Positions 1 to 34,556 are shown, counted from the stretch's first letter. The stretch is DNA of 34,556 nt from a virus (IMGVR_UViG_3300045790_002272:1-34556), one strand, 5' to 3'. Program-made: numbers and translations. Notes: a model not told the origin generated them from the letters alone.

Positions 1-127
1 CTTGGCACCTCGCAGCCCCCGAGGTTTCTAAAAGCCGCTTTGCTTGGTCGCGTATTTTTAAAAATTGCTTTTGGCCTTCTTCTGTAAAAATGGCTGCCTT
101 TTCATCTTCATAGTTGTACATAAATCA
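1..127. repeat. Terminal redundancy: bases 1-127 are identical to 34430-34556, consistent with the overlap of a circular contig
   Basis: Direct comparison of the first and last 127 nt shows an exact match. Content is the 5' part of the 85-aa gene annotated at 34293-34550. Confidence 0.9.
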
Positions 128-144
128 CTCCGTAGTTGGGCGCT

Positions 145-208
145 GCCTAACAACGCCATTAAAAATCGGACTCCGCTACCGCTACGCCGTTTATGGCAAG
201 GGTTATAT
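145..208 (+). repeat. attC-like site f1 (64 nt), duplicate of 33635-33698
   Basis: GCCTAAC-AACGC-CAT[T]AAA[AAT]CGG...CCGTTTATG-GCAAGG-GTTATAT. TAAC/GTTA ends, imperfect palindrome, extra bases on the 5' arm. Stop codon of ORF 203-535 lies in the GTTA box. Confidence 0.6.
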
Positions 209-535
209 TTCAAACATGCCTTTGAACTGTGGTGGATGATCTATATTCCTGATCAAGCAATGGTCTTTCATGCTCCTCATTTGGTTTACAAGTTGTTCAA
301 ATTGACCGTCGCCAATGTCGTAAAACCTTACAAATGCATTTTTTCTGTACACGCCTGTTAGCACTATTGTGTTGTTTCCTCTAACCCCTACATCAGCATC
401 AACACGGGTGTAATCTTTCAGCTCTGAAACCTTGTTTTGTACAAATTTACGATGATTTTTCAGGGCAATTCGTAACATCTCGTTTTCTTTTTCAAGAGCT
501 GTAATTCCTAGTTTTCTTTTAATCCAATCTTTCAT
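203..535 (-). CDS. Hypothetical protein (110 aa), cassette-like ORF
   Basis: ORF fills the space between sites f1 and j. TAA stop is the complement of TTA in GTTATAT (202-208). No family recognised. Confidence 0.6.
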   Translation of the reverse strand: MKDWIKRKLGITALEKENEMLRIALKNHRKFVQNKVSELKDYTRVDADVGVRGNNTIVLTGVYRKNAFVRFYDIGDGQFEQLVNQMRSMKDHCLIRNIDHPPQFKGMFEI

Positions 536-556
536 ATTCCATCTCTAGTATTTTAA

Positions 557-606
557 ATATAACAAGGTTTATCAAGCCGACTTCGTAAACTCGGCTGGTG
601 TTATTC
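557..606 (+). repeat. Truncated attC-like site j (50 nt)
   Basis: ATATAAC-AAGGT-TTATCAAGCCGA-loop-TCGGCT-GGT-GTTATTC. 6-bp stem AGCCGA/TCGGCT. The right arm lacks a full L' box. Stop of ORF 601-852 lies in GTTATTC. Confidence 0.35.
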
Positions 607-2468: not shown

Positions 2469-2665
2469 TTAAATGACCCCGCTATGCGTGCGCGTTCTAC
2501 TTGTTCTGGCCAGCTCATGGCTAGTTCTTGCTTTGCTTCTGTTGATTTGTCGCTAATGAGCGCTAATGACATGATGTTGCCGATTTGTAGTAATTTACGA
2601 AGTTCTTTTCTTTCAACGCTTTCTGAGCGTTGATCTTTAACCATAAAGTTTGCTTTTTTCATCAT
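2465..2665 (-). CDS. Hypothetical protein (about 66 aa; start trimmed to MMKKANF)
   Basis: Strong RBS GGAGG immediately upstream of ATGATG at 2665/2662. The longer 100-aa form overlaps the neighbouring ORF. Confidence 0.45.
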   Translation of the reverse strand: MMKKANFMVKDQRSESVERKELRKLLQIGNIMSLALISDKSTEAKQELAMSWPEQVERARIAGSFK

Positions 2666-2673
2666 ATCCTCCG

Positions 2674-2895
2674 TTAGCGTGTTGCTACTGTGATTCGATT
2701 GTATTTGTTGGGCAGGTTGTTGCAGGCGGTTAGGTCGCGCCCGTACTTGTTTTCTACCCATTGGCATTGACCATTGCCATTAAAAGCTACGGTTGGTGTG
2801 TTAATACAGCTAACAACAGCCAGTGCGATAAACGCCCAAAGGGCTGCTATGGCGGCTACTGTTTGTAAAACGTTTTTGTTGTTATTGTTTTGCAT
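2674..2895 (-). CDS. Small membrane-anchored or secreted protein (73 aa), first gene after the PL-like promoter
   Basis: Hydrophobic segment VLQTVAAIAALWAFIALAVV, several Cys, RBS AAGGA. Confidence 0.5.
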   Translation of the reverse strand: MQNNNNKNVLQTVAAIAALWAFIALAVVSCINTPTVAFNGNGQCQWVENKYGRDLTACNNLPNKYNRITVATR

Positions 2896-2929
2896 GTCCT
2901 TTTGCCTCTTTTTTGTTTAACGTGGAGAT

Positions 2930-2960
2930 AATATATACGTAATGTATACGTATAGTCAAC
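2930..2960 (-). promoter_or_regulatory. PL-like early-left promoter with operator motifs
   Basis: Minus strand reads GTTGACT-atac-GTATAC-atta-CGTATATATT. It matches the PR block 4285-4315 at 23 of 31 positions. Contains TATAC-N5-GTATA (2934-2948). Confidence 0.65.
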
Positions 2961-2983
2961 AAAATGTATATGTTTTTTTTACG

Positions 2984-3012
2984 GACAATAAAAAACCCGC
3001 CGTAGCGGGTTA
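2984..3012 (-). terminator. Rho-independent terminator ending the cI operon
   Basis: Minus strand: ACCCGC-tacg-GCGGGT followed by TTTTTTATT. Confidence 0.75.
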
Positions 3013-3036
3013 GAATTTATTGGTTTTGTGCGTGTA

Positions 3037-3540
3037 TTATTTATTTGCTGATGTTACCCAGCAGGCAGATTTGCTAGCCTGACTTTGAATAAAGCCCATA
3101 TTGATATCATTGAATGTTTTAGAGGTGTTGGCAGGGATTATTTCATAGATAGTGTGCGTGTTTGAGTCTATAACGGTGCCGCTGTTTGCGCTGTGCTGGC
3201 ATTTTATTGTAATGTCTTTAACGGGGAAGGGATTGGTATTGTTAATGGTGAAGTTGGCTTCCATGACTGTGTTAAATGCTGTGGTTTTCCATGAGAAGTC
3301 GCTTATTGTTACTTTGTTTATAATGGATTGCGTTTTTGTTGCCATTTCTTTTGATTTTTGTTCGTTCTCGCTGATGATGCTGGTGCATTGATACACGATG
3401 AACCCGACGAATATGGCGAGGAGTATTTTTATAATTTTACCGATGCCAATGGGTTGCTTTATGGGTGCTCCGCAGGATGGGCATTGGGTGGCTTTTTTGC
3501 TTATTTCTTTGTTGCATTCTTTGCAGGTTGTTAGTGACAT
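3037..3540 (-). CDS. Zinc-ribbon membrane protein co-transcribed with the repressor
   Basis: CKECNKEISKKATQCPSCGAP, then a TM helix (IIKILLAIFVGFIVY), then a roughly 110-aa extracytoplasmic domain. Sits between cI and its terminator. Confidence 0.6.
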   Translation of the reverse strand: MSLTTCKECNKEISKKATQCPSCGAPIKQPIGIGKIIKILLAIFVGFIVYQCTSIISENEQKSKEMATKTQSIINKVTISDFSWKTTAFNTVMEANFTINNTNPFPVKDITIKCQHSANSGTVIDSNTHTIYEIIPANTSKTFNDINMGFIQSQASKSACWVTSANK

Positions 3541-9060: not shown

Positions 9061-9258
9061 ATGTTAAGTGATGATTTGAGTAAAGAGACAAGGAAAGCGG
9101 AGGAGGCGATACGCGTCGCGCTTCAAAAGCTTCATGAGACGACAGGGTTAATACCTGTTTCTGTATCGTTTAGCCCCGTTGATGTTAGATGTATGGATGA
9201 TCATGGGAAACGCAAGCAGGTGGTTATTTCTGATGTGGAAGTGATAGCGAATACTTAA
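9061..9258 (+). CDS. Hypothetical protein (65 aa)
   Basis: ORF preceded by the repeated GGGTGGGGATATG initiation context. Confidence 0.4.
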   Translation: MLSDDLSKETRKAEEAIRVALQKLHETTGLIPVSVSFSPVDVRCMDDHGKRKQVVISDVEVIANT

Positions 9259-9368
9259 CACCCGCATAACCGGCGCAGCTTTTAGCGCCCGGTTCATGCG
9301 CTGGTTAGAAAATTAAGTAAAAGAAACCATTTTAATTCCAACCTTTTTTAATTTTTTTAAATTAATGC

Positions 9369-29111: not shown

Positions 29112-29142
29112 TAAAAGAGTTCGAGTCTCTCCTTTCGCACCA
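29112..29142 (+). other. attP core candidate: 3' fragment of a tRNA (T-arm, acceptor, CCA)
   Basis: AAGAG-TTCGAGT-CTCTC-CTTTCGC-A-CCA ends at 29142, 42 nt from the int stop. Resembles tRNA-Leu 3' ends (..GTTCGAGTC..CCTTCGGCACCA). No matching 5' half upstream. Confidence 0.65.
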
Positions 29143-29183
29143 TCTATTTAGTTATAAATCAATAGGTTATGTTTTTATATAAT

Positions 29184-30671: not shown

Positions 30672-30706
30672 TTTTTCCTACCTTGCACGGTTAGGTTAAT
30701 GCGGTG

Positions 30707-31048
30707 TTATGCAGCATTCGAGAAGTTGGTAATCTCAGAGATTCCAACACGTTCTTGGTATCCGCTAGATTGAGTAAAATCTTTTGTTAGCCACACATCA
30801 CCCATGCGGCTGGCTCCAGTGACTCGGTAGCGCTCGCCTTTATAATCACAATAGAGTTGGTACTGAGTAATAATATTGGAGAACTTACACTTCAATGTTT
30901 CCGGCATTCTCTTCATATTCAAAAACCAGCTTGCGTACACGTCTGTGTCGGGATGGTCAATGAATTCGTCAACATGCTCCATAACAAGCAGGTCAACTCG
31001 ACCGCTTACCGCGTCGTTTGTTTCAAATTCTGTGGTTCCGTTTATCAT
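30707..31048 (-). CDS. Hypothetical protein (113 aa)
   Basis: RBS GGAGA. TAA stop is the complement of TTA in GTTATGC (30706-30712). Confidence 0.55.
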   Translation of the reverse strand: MINGTTEFETNDAVSGRVDLLVMEHVDEFIDHPDTDVYASWFLNMKRMPETLKCKFSNIITQYQLYCDYKGERYRVTGASRMGDVWLTKDFTQSSGYQERVGISEITNFSNAA

Positions 31049-31107
31049 TTTCGTGTCTCCAAGTTTGTGCCACTCAATCGCGGCAAGTTACCTTCATCGT
31101 TATGTGT

Positions 31108-31356
31108 CTAAATCATATCGTCGATTCGTTTTTTTAATCCGTTAATATTGCGAATATCATCAAGCCTTCTATGGCCATGGAAATAATCATCAATTAGATT
31201 CATATCTACCCACCGACTTTCCTCTAAGTCAAAAAACTGCTTTTCGCAATTAAGATACACTCCTTCCATTTCATCGCCATAGTTGTACATGCAATAAGTG
31301 ACTGCCATATTCGGTGCATCATCCACTATCTGCGTATCAGTTTTGTAGCCCTTCAT
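31108..31356 (-). CDS. Hypothetical protein (82 aa; start trimmed to MKGYKTD)
   Basis: Strong RBS GGGAGGA 4 nt upstream of ATG 31356. Confidence 0.5.
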   Translation of the reverse strand: MKGYKTDTQIVDDAPNMAVTYCMYNYGDEMEGVYLNCEKQFFDLEESRWVDMNLIDDYFHGHRRLDDIRNINGLKKRIDDMI

Positions 31357-31371
31357 AAATCCTCCCGTAAC

Positions 31372-31496
31372 ACATAACAACAGCTTCATTGCGACCCTGC
31401 GGGTCGTGGCTTTGTTCTGTATTTTCGTTTGCGTCTGTCATCGTCTCAATCTCCTAAACCTACTTCCCCGCAGGGCGCTATAAGCAGGGGTTATAC
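31372..31496 (+). repeat. attC-like site (125 nt)
   Basis: ACATAAC-AACA-GCTT[C]ATTGCG[A]CCCTGCGGG...63 nt...CCCGCAGGG-CGCTAT-AAGC-AGGG-GTTATAC. About 19 bp of pairing, with two unpaired bases 6 nt apart on the 5' arm. Confidence 0.65.
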
Positions 31497-31769
31497 GGAT
31501 AGTCCGTCTCGATCAGCCAGCGCTGTCTCGCATGAATTTAGTAGCGTTGATGTGTGAACTAAGTTTCTTTCTGCCAATCCTAGCTGTAGCTCAAGCTCCT
31601 TAATTCTATTCAAGCTTCGCTCAGCAAGATCAACGCAGGAAACGGTAATGAACGACTCGTACCCTGATTCAGTTTCATACAGAACATCAATCTCTGAGTT
31701 ACCCAAGTCGTCAGGAGAGTAAGCGGCTAATGTTTCTAGTTGATATTTTATGTGTTCGTTTTCATTCAT
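31491..31769 (-). CDS. Hypothetical acidic protein (92 aa; start trimmed to MNENEH)
   Basis: RBS GGAG upstream of ATG 31769. The longer form would run into the attC-like site. Stop lies in GTTATAC. Confidence 0.55.
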   Translation of the reverse strand: MNENEHIKYQLETLAAYSPDDLGNSEIDVLYETESGYESFITVSCVDLAERSLNRIKELELQLGLAERNLVHTSTLLNSCETALADRDGLSV

Positions 31770-31787
31770 AGTTTTTACTCCGTTTTC

Positions 31788-31849
31788 GTATAACAAGTCT
31801 TTCAAAAAGAGCCGGAACAGCACCGGCCTGTTTAACTAGGGCGTTAGCG
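31788..31849 (+). repeat. attC-like site (62 nt, type 1)
   Basis: GTATAAC-AAGTC-TTT[C]AAAAAG[A]GCCGG-aacagca-CCGGCCTGTTTAAC-TAGGGC-GTTAGCG. Confidence 0.7.
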
Positions 31850-32005
31850 AGCCTGGCGGCGCTTGTTCAGCTTCGCAACATAGGCCCGTATCTGCTTAAA
31901 ATCGTCAGGGTGGGCATAAAGGCTTCGAATCTCTTTAAGCCCCTCTGCTGCCCTGCGCTCCTTTAATTCTGCCTGCCGCTCCGCAACGGTTTTGGCAGCA
32001 CTCAT
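31844..32005 (-). CDS. Small basic protein (53 aa), ERQAxLxERRAAxG family; not in the ORF track
   Basis: Hand translation gives MSAAKTVAERQAELKERRAAEGLKEIRSLYAHPDDFKQIRAYVAKLNKRRQAR. ATGA overlap with the upstream ORF. Paralogue of 33693-33836. Confidence 0.55.
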   Translation of the reverse strand: MSAAKTVAERQAELKERRAAEGLKEIRSLYAHPDDFKQIRAYVAKLNKRRQAR

Positions 32006-32187
32006 ATCCGTTCCGCCTTTGTCGCTGGAACAGACTTGAGGTCTCCTTTAGGCCAGTTGCACTTAGATGACTGAGGGGAGCAAAGCAGTATCACGCGCCC
32101 ACTTGCTCCAAATTCGATATCCTCAATCTTCCAGTCTGCACCGTTGAATTTAACTATTGCGCCCTTTTCAATTTCTTCCAGTTTCAT
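32002..32187 (-). CDS. Hypothetical protein (61 aa), first gene of a two-gene unit
   Basis: RBS GGTGA. Preceded by its own promoter. Translationally coupled to the 53-aa ORF. Confidence 0.5.
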   Translation of the reverse strand: MKLEEIEKGAIVKFNGADWKIEDIEFGASGRVILLCSPQSSKCNWPKGDLKSVPATKAERI

Positions 32188-32213
32188 ATCTTCACCTTTA
32201 GGTTAGTCGTAAC

Positions 32214-32244
32214 ATAATAATAGCTGTTAGTCGTAACGTGTCAA
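32214..32244 (-). promoter_or_regulatory. Cassette-internal sigma70-like promoter flanked by 12-bp direct repeats
   Basis: Minus strand: TTGACA, 17-19 nt spacer, ATTATT/TATTAT. GTTACGACTAAC occurs twice (32226-32237 and 32202-32213), bracketing the -10. Confidence 0.55.
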
Positions 32245-32251
32245 GTGTTTT

Positions 32252-32321
32252 CGCTAACACCCCGCAGCATCCGACCCTCAAAGCTTGCAGCTTTTCGGTC
32301 GGCTGTGCTCCAAGGTTATAT
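32252..32321 (+). repeat. attC-like site (70 nt)
   Basis: CGCTAAC-ACCCC-GCAGCATCCGACC-ctc-AAAGCT-tgc-AGCTTT-tc-GGTCGGCTGTGC-TCCAAG-GTTATAT. Spacers are 5 and 6 nt. Extra bases on the 5' arm. Confidence 0.55.
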
Positions 32322-32537
32322 GTACGCCTTTACAAAAAGTGGTGCTCTTAAATATGTCTTTGACGCGTCATCAAAAACCATATTATTCGGATTTAGCTCT
32401 CTGTAATTTTTAAAATCTCTCGTAGCAGTTGCAGGGCTAATTCCAAAGAAATCTATAATAAATTCACGTTTTATTTGGCCGTATTTATCTAGCAAAAAGT
32501 CAATCAGCCTGAGTCTTTGTTCAATTGCGTAGTTCAT
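32316..32537 (-). CDS. Small wHTH protein (73 aa; DeoR/HTH_11-like)
   Basis: RLRLIDFLLDKYGQIKREFIIDFFGISPATATRDFKNYRE. Stop lies in GTTATAT. Confidence 0.55.
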   Translation of the reverse strand: MNYAIEQRLRLIDFLLDKYGQIKREFIIDFFGISPATATRDFKNYRELNPNNMVFDDASKTYLRAPLFVKAYI

Positions 32538-32560
32538 AATTTACCTTTTTCACGGTTTTC

Positions 32561-32622
32561 ATATAACAATTCTTTCAATCAGAGCCGGAAAAGCACCGGC
32601 CTGTTTAACTAAAGCGTTATGT
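32561..32622 (+). repeat. attC-like site (62 nt, type 1)
   Basis: ATATAAC-AATTC-TTT[C]AATCAG[A]GCCGG-aaaagca-CCGGCCTGTTTAAC-TAAAGC-GTTATGT. Confidence 0.7.
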
Positions 32623-32952
32623 GTCTTCATTTCTTGATTTCATTAAGACTCTAATTTCTTGGGCTATTATTTGACGCGCCCTGGTCGCGCTTACACCTAG
32701 AACTTCGCCAGCTTGTGCGTAAGTCTTTCCGTCTAATTTATGTAGTGTTAGGATGATTCCTCGGAGTCGCTTATTCTGATTTTGTAGCTTTTGATAGCTC
32801 TCGTAGGTCACGTTGGCTTCTTTTTTATCGCTTCTGTTGCTTTTTTTGAGATCAGCTTCTTTTTTTCTAGAGGCCTTGATTTCCTCCGTTAGGCTCCTTT
32901 CTTTATTTCTCACTCTTTCTCGTTCTTCAATTAATACGCTTAAATCGCTCAT
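32617..32952 (-). CDS. Coiled-coil protein with a C-terminal sigma70-region-4-like HTH (111 aa)
   Basis: KTYAQAGEVLGVSATRARQIIAQEIRVL. ATG lies in GTTATG (complement of the TAAC box). Stop lies in GTTATGT. Confidence 0.55.
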   Translation of the reverse strand: MSDLSVLIEERERVRNKERSLTEEIKASRKKEADLKKSNRSDKKEANVTYESYQKLQNQNKRLRGIILTLHKLDGKTYAQAGEVLGVSATRARQIIAQEIRVLMKSRNEDT

Positions 32953-33051
32953 AACAAGTATCTCCAGTTGACAAATAACCGCATCGGCATTTGTCGTTAA
33001 ATTTAAAGTTTTCAGTAGCGGTTATTTGCTACTGAGAATTTGGCGTTATGC
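32949..33051 (+). repeat. attC-like site (103 nt, type 2)
   Basis: TCATAAC-AAGTA-TCTC[C]AGT-tga-CAAATAACCGC...GCGGTTATTTG-ct-ACTGAGA-ATTTGGC-GTTATGC. The complement of TCTCC is the GGAGA RBS of ORF 32617-32952. Confidence 0.65.
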
Positions 33052-33261
33052 TTCGGGCAGTTTGTAGTTTCCATCATTTCGCGGCCACAAGAAAATAGCA
33101 TCCTTCGGAGGAATCCACCCTCTAGCCTTTGACCCTACAGGGTGAGCTATACAGTCTGATCGATTAACACCGTAAAGTTTTGGCAGTTGCCAAGCGCTTA
33201 TATAGTGCCTATCACCATCTTTGGCTACTACCCCACCTCCGCTTAATACATAAATAGGCAT
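33046..33261 (-). CDS. Hypothetical protein (71 aa)
   Basis: ATG lies in GTTATG, RBS GGAGA lies inside the type-2 site, stop lies in GTTATGC. Confidence 0.55.
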   Translation of the reverse strand: MPIYVLSGGGVVAKDGDRHYISAWQLPKLYGVNRSDCIAHPVGSKARGWIPPKDAIFLWPRNDGNYKLPEA

Positions 33262-33359
33262 AACAAGTATCTCCAGTTGACAAATAACCGTTCCGGCTTT
33301 GTCATTAAATTTAAAGTTTTCAGTAGCGGTTATTTGCTACTGAGAATCGGGCGTTAGGC
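33258..33359 (+). repeat. attC-like site (102 nt, type 2)
   Basis: Near-identical to 32949-33051, with differences in the central loop and the right-hand spacer. Ends GTTAGGC. Confidence 0.65.
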
Positions 33360-33696
33360 CGCTATGTAAACGCGGTGTTGTCCGGCAACTTTCATATCTT
33401 TTGTAAGCTCCTTTATTTCACCAAGCTCAACCAGCCTGTCTACGCAAGCCAGCATTGCCCACGAATCACCAGTGCAGCCAGCAATAATCTCTTGGCACCT
33501 CGCAGCCCCCGAGGTTTCTAAAAGCCGCTTTGCTTGGTCGCGTATTTTTAAAAATTGCTTTTGGCCTTCTTCTGTAAAAATGGCTGCCTTTTCATCTTCA
33601 TAGTTGTACATAAATCAATCCGTAGTTGGGCGCTGCCTAACAACGCCATTAAAAATCGGACTCCGCTACCGCTACGCCGTTTATGGCAAGGGTTAT
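33351..33696. repeat. 346-bp direct repeat, copy A (ORF plus attC-like site)
   Basis: Identical to 34290-34556 continued at 128-206, except one base (33618 a versus 128 c). Confidence 0.9.
33354..33611 (-). CDS. Hypothetical protein (85 aa), copy A
   Basis: Protein identical to 34293-34550. Stop lies in GTTAGGC. Confidence 0.6.
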   Translation of the reverse strand: MYNYEDEKAAIFTEEGQKQFLKIRDQAKRLLETSGAARCQEIIAGCTGDSWAMLACVDRLVELGEIKELTKDMKVAGQHRVYIAA

Positions 33697-33698
33697 GT
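33635..33698 (+). repeat. attC-like site f2 (64 nt)
   Basis: Same as 145-208 but ends GTTATGT. Confidence 0.6.
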
Positions 33699-33836
33699 TG
33701 CCTTTCGCAATTTTCTTACTAATTCATCAACTTTTACTTTCTCAGCATTGGTTAAGAAAAACTCCCGTCTTTTTTGGCCTAAAGCAGCTCTACGTTCTCG
33801 CAGAGCTGCTTGGCGTTCTTTATTTGATTTAGGCAT
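33693..33836 (-). CDS. Small basic protein (47 aa), ERQAxLxERRAAxG family; not in the ORF track
   Basis: Hand translation gives MPKSNKERQAALRERRAALGQKRREFFLTNAEKVKVDELVRKLRKAT. ATG lies 2 nt after the stop of 33839-34144. Stop lies in GTTATGT. Confidence 0.5.
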   Translation of the reverse strand: MPKSNKERQAALRERRAALGQKRREFFLTNAEKVKVDELVRKLRKAT

Positions 33837-33838
33837 TG

Positions 33839-34144
33839 TTATCCGCCAAAAGGCTCTGATCCGTTATTGCTACCAAAATCTTGTCCCCAAATTTCAATAT
33901 TCCAATCCTGTATCGCTTTTTGACAGATGGGTTCGTAGTAGCTTTTTTCTCCTGATTTAACAATAATATCAAGAGCTTTTATAGTCGCTTCCATTTCACT
34001 ATCAGATGTTTCTCCGTTAAATCCTTCCCCCATTATATCTATAGCATCTATACCAGAATCTATCCCATCACATAATGTTTCTATGTCATTCATATTGAAG
34101 TTTTCTTCTAATCCATCTACTACATGTTTAAATAAAGTTGTCAT
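33839..34144 (-). CDS. Strongly acidic hypothetical protein (101 aa)
   Basis: About 21 D/E versus 5 K and 0 R by my count. RBS GGAG. Preceded by its own promoter. Confidence 0.55.
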   Translation of the reverse strand: MTTLFKHVVDGLEENFNMNDIETLCDGIDSGIDAIDIMGEGFNGETSDSEMEATIKALDIIVKSGEKSYYEPICQKAIQDWNIEIWGQDFGSNNGSEPFGG

Positions 34145-34173
34145 TTCCTACTCCTTTTCGTTAATGTAGGTAT

Positions 34174-34202
34174 ATTATTGCATTGTTACCGGTAACAGTC
34201 AA
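34174..34202 (-). promoter_or_regulatory. Cassette-internal sigma70-like promoter with a palindromic operator
   Basis: Minus strand: TTGACT, 17-nt spacer, AATAAT. The perfect palindrome GTTACCGGTAAC (34185-34196) fills the spacer. Confidence 0.6.
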
Positions 34203-34236
34203 GCGATTAATGCAAATAAAATAATTTAGGACGGCA

Positions 34237-34298
34237 ACATAACAAGTCATTCAATCAGAGCCGGTAAAGCACCGGCCTGTTTAACTAAAGCGTTAGGC
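34237..34298 (+). repeat. attC-like site (62 nt, type 1)
   Basis: ACATAAC-AAGTC-ATT[C]AATCAG[A]GCCGG-taaagca-CCGGCCTGTTTAAC-TAAAGC-GTTAGGC. Confidence 0.7.
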
Positions 34299-34556
34299 CG
34301 CTATGTAAACGCGGTGTTGTCCGGCAACTTTCATATCTTTTGTAAGCTCCTTTATTTCACCAAGCTCAACCAGCCTGTCTACGCAAGCCAGCATTGCCCA
34401 CGAATCACCAGTGCAGCCAGCAATAATCTCTTGGCACCTCGCAGCCCCCGAGGTTTCTAAAAGCCGCTTTGCTTGGTCGCGTATTTTTAAAAATTGCTTT
34501 TGGCCTTCTTCTGTAAAAATGGCTGCCTTTTCATCTTCATAGTTGTACATAAATCA
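34290..34556. repeat. 346-bp direct repeat, copy B (continues at 128-206 across the circular junction)
   Basis: Exact match to 33351-33617. The remainder matches 33618-33696 with one mismatch. Confidence 0.9.
34293..34550 (-). CDS. Hypothetical protein (85 aa), copy B
   Basis: Identical to 33354-33611. Confidence 0.6.
   Translation of the reverse strand: MYNYEDEKAAIFTEEGQKQFLKIRDQAKRLLETSGAARCQEIIAGCTGDSWAMLACVDRLVELGEIKELTKDMKVAGQHRVYIAA

Follow-up and report, generated by a model that had tools for sequence, protein, structure and literature searches.

A probable integron-type gene-cassette array in the genome of a temperate phage

The viral DNA stretch IMGVR_UViG_3300045790_002272:1-34556, the whole 34,556 nt of which we call the window, carries a series of folded elements between small genes next to its phage integrase gene. 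Comparative analysis makes it highly probable that these elements and genes constitute an integron-type gene-cassette array, namely a cluster of attC sites lacking integron integrase (CALIN), which forms a regular part of this temperate phage genome. Integrons are regarded as bacterial devices, and the link between integrons and phages has so far consisted of a few small CALINs and seemingly accidental captures. In IntegronFinder's definition, a CALIN has at least two attC sites less than 4 kb apart without an integron integrase gene (intI) nearby. In the window, a stretch of 2.5 kb contains three sites with E<0.01, and combined criteria give eleven sites. There is no intI in the genome, and thus none adjacent to the array as in a complete integron. 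The sole recombinase encoded is a lambda-type integrase with an arm-binding domain, to which NCBIfam TIGR02249 gave no match. A first reading of the window, made from its sequence alone and hereafter called the sequence-only reading, had proposed a CALIN on a temperate phage without IntI; given the attC sites and the lack of IntI, this description was right. Comparison with other genomes reveals the architecture and orientation of the sites, the boundaries of the cassettes, their turnover and, in more distant phages, an IntI together with an attI.

The sequence-only reading had listed ten elements, two of them across the junction of the ends of the stretch. All ten were present at their places, and each starts with nnnTAAC and ends with GTTAnnn on the + strand. 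The two elements across the junction belong to the series because the genome is circular and its ends overlap by 127 nt. Beyond these ten, we found an eleventh array site, E0 (30979-31105), and a solitary site in the reverse orientation (9253-9310; S2 in Table 1). All 11 array sites have nnnTAAC...GTTAnnn on the + strand; most of them conform fully to RYYYAAC/GTTRRRY, and some deviate at the outer degenerate positions. The sites were compared with four reference attCs (aadA2, aac(6')-IIc, ereA2 and dfrA14), which came from plasmids with annotated integrons of class 1 or class 2. When segments were cut from both ends, one layout was common to nine phage sites and the four reference attCs. From the 5' end, R'' takes 7 nt and the spacer 5 nt; then come 3 bp that end at a single bulged base (C or G) and 6 bp that end at a single bulged A. 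A further stem leads to a centre that varies from 5 to 74 nt, and beyond the complementary arm are a spacer of 5-7 nt and an R' of 7 nt. Seven window sites and sites in relatives have this layout, E3 and E7/E9 deviate from it, and E10 is without an L box. In integron attC sites, two extrahelical bases of the bottom strand (G and T) have a fixed spacing and govern the choice of strand. The bulged C (or G) and A of the + strand correspond to G/C and T on the - strand and stand at the same positions in the four true attCs. The segment-wise layout confirmed an early observation, the unpaired C and A placed 6 nt apart in the 5' arm of the + strand. The likeness to the aadA attC was borne out when the sites were compared with attC(aadA2) of plasmid NZ_KY270855.

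A strict geometry scanner, which had been tightened after a looser version gave many background matches, found seven matches in the window, all of them on the + strand and within the array. The expectation is 0.52 matches per genome for both strands (200 Markov shuffles, maximum 4). At 66 IntI loci, the same scanner gave 37 matches on the side and strand where attCs are expected (296 kb), as compared with 12 matches in 1.27 Mb elsewhere. We also built two covariance models. Model R1 was trained solely on 36 scanner-selected true attCs, and model R2 was trained solely on 12 phage sites. For the structure model, fixed-geometry 58-nt "mini" constructs were used, in which the loops are trimmed and the spacers are padded with N; they replaced a MAFFT alignment of the full-length sites, which placed the 3' ends wrongly. 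As shown in Table 1, a search of both strands with R1 found E8, E4 and E2 in the array (best E=1.7e-5) and, with weaker full-length scores, E7, E9 and E3. All of these matches are on the + strand. The top match of R2 was attC(aadA2) (47.1 bits, E=3.3e-8), and 22 of 30 R2 matches were at true integrons, with the side and strand expected of attCs. The wrong-side matches of the scanner and R2 come mostly from a few bacterial IntI loci with attCs downstream of intI on the same strand (L034, 14464-20726, +; L053, 1704-4083, +; L050, 13760, +). These loci are probably inverted-integrase-type integrons.

Of the 13 pairs that vary among the phage sites, 11 showed compensatory changes. The covariation score was 0.513; shuffles gave 0.124 (0/500), and sliding of the partner gave 0.07-0.13. 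When the - strand was folded as single-stranded DNA (ssDNA), z values of -1.5 to -3.4 were obtained for most sites, and the R box and bulged stem were reproduced for E1, E4 and E5. The ssDNA fold of E7 was no better than those of shuffles. Rfam at the gathering threshold gave no match in the window, and we know of no attC family in Rfam. An exact-pattern scan of IMG/VR found the 62-nt family (E2, E4 and E8) in one contig and the 102-nt family in no contig. The 62-nt family is also present in ordinary multi-cassette arrays from metagenomes (66 contigs, 131 R1 matches); neither IntI nor phage Int was found in the examined parts of these 66 contigs.

A circular cassette intermediate cut at G↓TT (the arrow marks the crossover) predicts that neighbouring sites are complementary to each other. 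At 9 of 10 junctions in the array, the 7 nt that end one site are exactly reverse-complementary to the 7 nt that open the next, and such a match within a single site was observed in 0 of 11 cases. In 100,000 permutations, the mean number of matching junctions was 1.7 and the maximum was 8 (P<1e-5). The complementarity runs to 8-12 nt in several cassettes. For example, an 11-nt match joins the start of cassette c8, GTTATGTTGCC, to c8's own R'', GGCAACATAAC. Each cassette is made up of TTAnnn, then one or two small open reading frames (ORFs) on the - strand, and then its own attC ending in G. Furthermore, one cassette is duplicated: c7 and c9, including the 85-aa ORF and E7/E9, are identical at 338 of 339 nt. 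On the left, both copies are bounded by GCG↓TTAGGC, although the attCs that precede them (E6 and E8) are unrelated; the right boundary is GGG↓TTAT. By these sequence relations, the elements are in our view genuine cassette boundaries.

Three near-identical genomes show directly how cassettes have recently been gained, lost and duplicated. We compared the window with L004 (Int 99% identical) and with IMGVR_UViG_3300031841_004194 (Int 98%; sequences L002 and L003), which we call the IMG/VR relative. The idea that related phages might have common flanks around different cassettes proved correct: between identical flanks, the window has 11 cassettes, L004 has 7 and the IMG/VR relative has 4. The three phages have a common backbone, which breaks off at GCGGTG↓TTAT and resumes with G↓TTATTCTTCTATCAC. 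After GCGGTG, the window continues with TTATGC, L004 with TTATGT and the IMG/VR relative with TTATAA, and then the sequences are unrelated. At the right end, the IMG/VR relative has a different last attC and the same continuation, G↓TTATTCTTCTATCAC. Three cassettes of L004 are 100% identical to those of the window and have different neighbours. The duplicated cassette c9 is missing from L004 exactly at G↓TT, and E8 joins c10 directly there. At the left junction (30690..30712), three different first cassettes follow the conserved GCGGTG↓TTAT. This behaviour is attI-like, and the left junction may act as an attI. The second locus, S2, is conserved in the IMG/VR relative (R1 30.3 bits; L003 2252-2309), which carries an extra cassette of ~410 nt at the exact G↓TT of S2 (L003 about 2660-3070). 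This cassette has two small ORFs and an attC of the 62-nt family with a decayed R'', ATATAGC. In the window, S2 is located downstream of a 65-aa ORF (9061-9258, +), the stop codon of which is the TTA of G↓TTA. Judged from this comparison, S2 is a second hotspot of cassette insertion, in the rightward early region.

Phages with an integrase of the same type encode IntI. The phage Int of L006 is 63% identical to the window Int, and just upstream of it L006 encodes a 319-aa IntI (733-1692), which gave 390 bits with TIGR02249 (cutoff 265) and is 42% identical to IntI1. The IntI proteins of L006, L008 and L009 are 93% identical. These three loci have a common sequence upstream of intI to ACTGG↓TTA, about 50 nt from the ATG, and are then divergent. 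This pattern is that of an attI ending in ACTGG↓TTA, with different first cassettes; the left junction of the window is unlike it. In L166, chain-rule cassettes (that is, cassettes with the neighbour complementarity described above) encode two DNA methyltransferases, and these cassettes are likewise antisense to their attCs. All eight IntI clusters examined that are 54-93% identical to L006 IntI belong to phages or prophages. A phage integrase adjoins IntI in most of the eight, and IntI is then usually directly upstream of it and co-directional. These sequences suggest that the phage-borne IntIs may form a phage-specific IntI clade. The loci are L006, L008, L012, L166 and L169-L173, and their IntIs are 54-93% identical to one another. 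Genes for Dam/N6_N4/MT-A70 methylases, an AcrVA2-like protein, ANT and Cro/CI are found near them.

Several points weigh against an integron-type array as a regular part of the phage. All of the evidence is comparative, and the window has no intI, so that the acting enzyme is hypothetical. The IntI-bearing phages share just the integrase type with the window and their tail genes differ; the link between them, as far as gene content indicates, is a module and not the whole genome. An IntI scan of 185,579 species genomes found none more than 52% identical to L006 IntI. The home-made model R1 is not equivalent to IntegronFinder's model (attc_4). It misses the four long-loop sites (E0, E1, E5 and E6; 70-nt loops) because of a limit of the model, scores E3, E7 and E9 only weakly, and gave nothing in L005, L166, L169 and L170, although L166 has chain-rule cassettes by eye. 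The training set of R1 and most of the sites used for covariation were picked by a pairing-based scanner, which inflates the "percent paired". E10 looks degenerate, and the left junction shows no attI feature past the GTTA direct repeat. Finally, every array ORF is on the - strand and thus antisense to the attC top strand (+), unlike the ORFs of canonical cassettes; the sequence-only reading had overlooked this feature.

The attC is located at the 5' side of each cassette ORF, and not downstream on the same strand as in a canonical cassette. The + strand reads as the attC top strand because the variable segment starts with TTAnnn plus gene and ends with attC; R1 and the bulge positions agree with this assignment. 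When the same orientation test was applied to ordinary arrays with the 62-nt family (L127, L134, L137, L158 and others), the result was mostly "same strand". L127, L134, L137 and L158 are canonical sense arrays with higher GC. The "opposite" orientation was obtained for small-ORF arrays, likewise with the 62-nt family, on the short contigs L135, L130, L165, L140 and L142, the last of which is the IMG/VR viral contig UViG_3300027852_000195. Because the ordinary arrays test as sense, the antisense layout is real in phage-type arrays and not an artefact of the orientation call. The TTA after the crossover G serves as the stop codon of the ORF in 10 of 11 cassettes. The same is true of the backbone DUF3850 gene: the backbone restarts at 601, and the TTA there is the stop codon of this gene. 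In E5 and E6, the start codon is in R'' and the ribosome-binding site (RBS) is in an arm of the attC, which for E5 is the 5' arm.

Searches of Pfam, PHROG and NCBIfam with the cassette proteins gave no function except for a weak helix-turn-helix (HTH) match and phrog_7644 (Table 1). Among all loci compared, the cassette proteins of the window recur only in L004. The two-gene cassettes c3 (61 and 53 aa) and c8 (101 and 47 aa) each have a strong sigma-70-like promoter site, which overlaps operator-like repeats. In this they resemble the self-promoted toxin-antitoxin cassettes of chromosomal integrons; their proteins had no family matches. In c1, a 34-codon ORF with a good AGGAG RBS (31339-31441, -) starts in the loop of E1 and reads across the 5' arm of E1. 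For the main ORF of c1, a start at 31356 (GGGAGG plus ATG) is more likely than the listed start at 31389.

Table 1 Sites, cassettes and related features of the window. Each cassette is listed below the site that closes it; the arrow marks the crossover.
Feature	Position	Strand	Remarks
Left array junction, GTTAGGTTAATGCGGTG↓TTATGC	30690..30712	+	Backbone kept to G 30706; first cassette from T 30707
attC E0, 127 nt, CCATAAC...GTTATGT	30979..31105	+	Scanner score 12; R' = reverse complement of E1 R''
Cassette c0	30707-31099		113-aa ORF on -; RBS and ATG within attC loop
attC E1, 125 nt	31372..31496	+	Scanner match; bottom-strand ssDNA fold with R box and bulged stem, z=-3.2
Cassette c1	31100-31490		
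attC E2, 62-nt family	31788..31849	+	R1 21.0 bits, E=0.009; scanner match
Cassette c2	31491-31843		110-aa ORF
attC E3, 70 nt	32252..32321	+	Second bulge absent; R1 10.7 bits (weak); chain rule; fold z=-3.35
Cassette c3	31844-32315		Two ORFs (53 and 61 aa); own promoter-like site
attC E4, 62-nt family	32561..32622	+	R1 29.4 bits, E=1.4e-4
Cassette c4	32316-32616		73-aa ORF; 100% identical in L004, other neighbours there
attC E5, 103 nt	32949..33051	+	Scanner match; ssDNA fold
Cassette c5	32617-33045		111-aa HTH protein (weak HTH match)
attC E6, 102 nt, E5 family	33258..33359	+	Scanner evidence
Cassette c6	33046-33353		71-aa ORF, phrog_7644
attC E7, 64 nt	33635..33698	+	R1 16.2 bits
Cassette c7	33354-33692		85-aa ORF; duplicate of c9
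attC E8, 62-nt family	34237..34298	+	R1 33.8 bits, E=1.7e-5 on +; 8.8 bits on -
Cassette c8	33693-34292		ORFs of 47 and 101 aa; own promoter-like site; palindrome
attC E9, copy of E7	145..208	+	Inside duplicated cassette
Cassette c9	34293-34429 plus 1-202		Second copy of 85-aa cassette
Terminal site E10, 50 nt	557..606	+	Degenerate L box
Cassette c10	203-600		110-aa ORF
Solitary attC-like site S2	9253..9310	- (top strand)	R1 22.9 bits, E=0.0036; fold z=-3.8
Promoter-like site of c3, TTGACA-16-TATTAT	32244-32217	-	Overlaps repeat GTTACGACTAAC, present twice in c3
Promoter-like site of c8, TTGACT-17-AATAAT	34202-34174	-	Overlaps palindrome GTTACCGGTAAC
Phage tyrosine integrase, 395 aa	29184..30371	-	Lambda type, arm-binding domain; Pfam PF12167, PF22022, PF00589

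Three other explanations of the elements were weighed. Ordinary intergenic hairpins of an operon (intrinsic terminators, RNA stabilisers or repetitive extragenic palindromic (REP)-like repeats), which have no role in DNA recombination, would likewise lie between co-directional genes and fold as hairpins. The sites would be stem-loops in mRNA in any case, and a T-rich tail comes after the stem in one instance (E2, - strand). However, terminator-like sites are not enriched (4 as compared with 4.2 expected). Moreover, hairpins of this kind leave unexplained the TAAC/GTTA cores, the two bulges at the fixed spacing of true attCs, the complementarity between neighbours and the gain or loss of gene-plus-site units exactly at G↓TT, and we give this explanation hardly any credence. 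The gain and loss of such units could instead be ascribed to phage "linker" sequences at which modules are exchanged, not by an integron integrase but through homologous recombination or the lambda-type integrase that the phage itself encodes. In mosaic phage genomes, recombination at short conserved sequences between genes is frequent, the gene for the tyrosine integrase is only 0.3 kb from the array, and the three near-identical 62-mers could support homologous exchange. Nevertheless, we consider this explanation very unlikely. The junctions join unrelated families with ~9 nt in common (for example, E6 of 102 nt and E8 of 62 nt before the duplicated cassette), and the crossovers are at a single phosphodiester, G↓TT. 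The outer 3-5 nt of a site match the neighbour and not the site's own partner, as expected from a circular intermediate, and the compensatory changes conserve structure, which points to a folded single-strand substrate. In addition, other phages with like cassettes encode IntI and have an attI.

It is extremely improbable, in our estimation, that the array was once part of an integron in the host chromosome and was passively captured by aberrant prophage excision. Qi et al. (2023, PMC9892861) suggested such a capture for prophages of Vibrio anguillarum, and the 62-nt family is found also in ordinary arrays with sense ORFs. However, the array is internal, between ORF95/int and the early genes, and the putative attP is on the far side of int. 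Three phages whose arrays differ have the same two junctions with the backbone, and the second site in the genome behaves alike. All ORFs point in the direction of the phage operon and are antisense to attC, in contrast to those of canonical metagenomic arrays, and all eight IntI clusters related to L006 IntI are phage-borne.

The window has an exact terminal repeat of 127 nt (1-127 = 34430-34556), which indicates a circularly closed assembly; the genome is thus circular or terminally redundant, with 34,429 nt. Its GC content is 44%, and that of the cassette array, which is 4.3 kb in all, is 42%. The array is located between the integrase module (ORF95/int) and the early-left genes. Together with the conserved junction at 30706, the 11 sites delimit 11 cassettes, from 30707 to 34429 and then on to 600. 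The large terminase (TerL), portal, capsid and tail genes are on the + strand, and an S24-peptidase (CI/LexA-like) repressor is also encoded in the window. In the comparison of TerL, the nearest isolated phages were temperate phages of Proteobacteria (55-63% identity). The homologues of the window integrase are all metagenomic, and a megablast search of the array and structural region against 50,697 deposited phage records gave zero matches; an exact-pattern scan of IMG/VR did not find the window itself. ARAGORN found no tRNA in the window. Just past the integrase gene, GAGTTCGAGTCTCTCCTTTCGCACCA (about 29118-29145) resembles the 3' end of a tRNA gene (T arm plus acceptor) and is probably the attP core. 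There was no detectable relationship between ORF95 and the small ORFs that adjoin Int in L005 and L006.

For the integron-type array, we infer the acting enzyme, its timing, the expression of the genes and their functions as follows. The - strand, which is the sense strand of the genes, would fold as the attC bottom-strand substrate for an integron integrase. Cassettes would be excised as circles by attC x attC recombination, and re-insertion would occur at the backbone junction (G↓TTAT, 30706), at other attCs or at the second site (9253-9310). Because there is no intI in the window, the enzyme would be needed in trans, and it would come from a host integron or from a co-resident IntI-encoding phage. 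Integron intI genes are commonly under LexA control. If this control holds here, one may speculate that cassettes would be shuffled at the time of prophage induction, with single-stranded phage DNA then in abundance. The cassette ORFs, which are co-directional with the leftward phage operon into int, are presumably expressed from phage promoters and not from the cassette promoter Pc. Their products possibly have counter-defence or other accessory functions. With somewhat better than even confidence, we further propose a class of phage-resident integrons, which would possess an IntI clade just upstream of phage Int, their own attI, and all-antisense arrays in the early-left operon. The window would be an IntI-less member of this class, with its integrase supplied in trans. 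Phage-resident integrons, if they are such a class, would shuffle accessory or counter-defence genes, probably upon prophage induction.

If this proposal is correct, the antisense cassettes would form a phage-specific cassette pool. In the temperate phage lineage of the window, the accessory region is itself organised and diversified as a cassette array, and phages would gain a site-specific, homology-independent exchange of small genes with each other and with bacterial integrons. Defence cassettes have recently been found in bacterial integrons, and counter-defence cassettes would mirror them. The cassettes of IntI-bearing phages, which include those for DNA methyltransferases and an AcrVA2-like protein, are candidates for counter-defence. 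Furthermore, antisense cassettes with a stop codon in the crossover triplet bear on the unsolved question of cassette origin, and they suggest that cassette expression need not depend on Pc.

Among known systems, the sedentary chromosomal integrons of Vibrio, Shewanella and Xanthomonas are similar to the phage array in having long arrays of small ORFans, similar attC families within an array, self-promoted two-gene cassettes (toxin-antitoxin-like) and an array that points away from the integrase gene. In contrast, the array in the window is in a 34-kb phage and not a chromosome, is short (4.3 kb), has no intI, and has antisense ORFs that are presumably off Pc. The attC(aadA1/aadA2) sites of class 1 mobile integrons have the same geometry as E2, E4 and E8, with similar sequences of R'', spacer and L box. 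E2, E4 and E8 differ from them in the sequence of the central stem, in the absence of resistance genes and in having the gene on the other strand. In the "inverted integrase" integrons of Treponema, Chlorobium and others, reportedly described by Boucher et al. in 2007, intI is said to be flipped while the ORFs are sense to attC. As in the phage arrays, the integrase gene and the cassette ORFs have the same direction in that group. In the phage arrays, however, attC and intI keep their canonical relation, and the inversion relative to attC concerns the ORFs. The PeSL promoter-plus-hairpin units of T4-type phages, reportedly described by Arbiol et al. in 2010 and thought to recombine homologously, are also repeated intergenic stem-loop elements that flank small variable early phage genes. 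They are not known to have RYYYAAC/GTTRRRY cores, extrahelical bases or G↓TT boundaries.

The closest precedent is in phages themselves. The sequence-only reading knew of no described example of such an array, and in this respect it has to be corrected, because a screen of 10,705 phage genomes (Qi et al. 2023, Front Microbiol, PMC9892861) yielded 17 CALINs with two or more attCs, besides three complete integrons and one In0. An attC cluster in a phage is thus already known, and the present case differs in layout and turnover. In that study, IntI1 recombined five of six tested phage attCs (PMC9892861). The CALINs of Qi et al. are similar to the array in the window in that phages without a nearby intI possess attCs and cassettes, the latter of unknown function or encoding methyltransferases, and the idea that phages tap the cassette pool is common to both studies. 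Their cases have 2-4 predicted sites, are mostly in virulent phages and are given without a comparison of related genomes. The featured phages TJE1 and PH101 have co-directional ORFs as in bacterial arrays, and other cases have divergent attC directions or several ORFs between sites. In the literature that we searched, no array was described as a conserved, variable module of a phage lineage, nor were uniformly antisense cassettes or a phage-borne IntI clade beside the phage integrase. The window, in contrast to the cases of Qi et al., has 11 sites and a second locus, a fixed attI-like junction beside int and uniformly antisense ORFs; its cassettes are gained and lost among phages that are 98-99% related, and phages with the same integrase type encode IntI.

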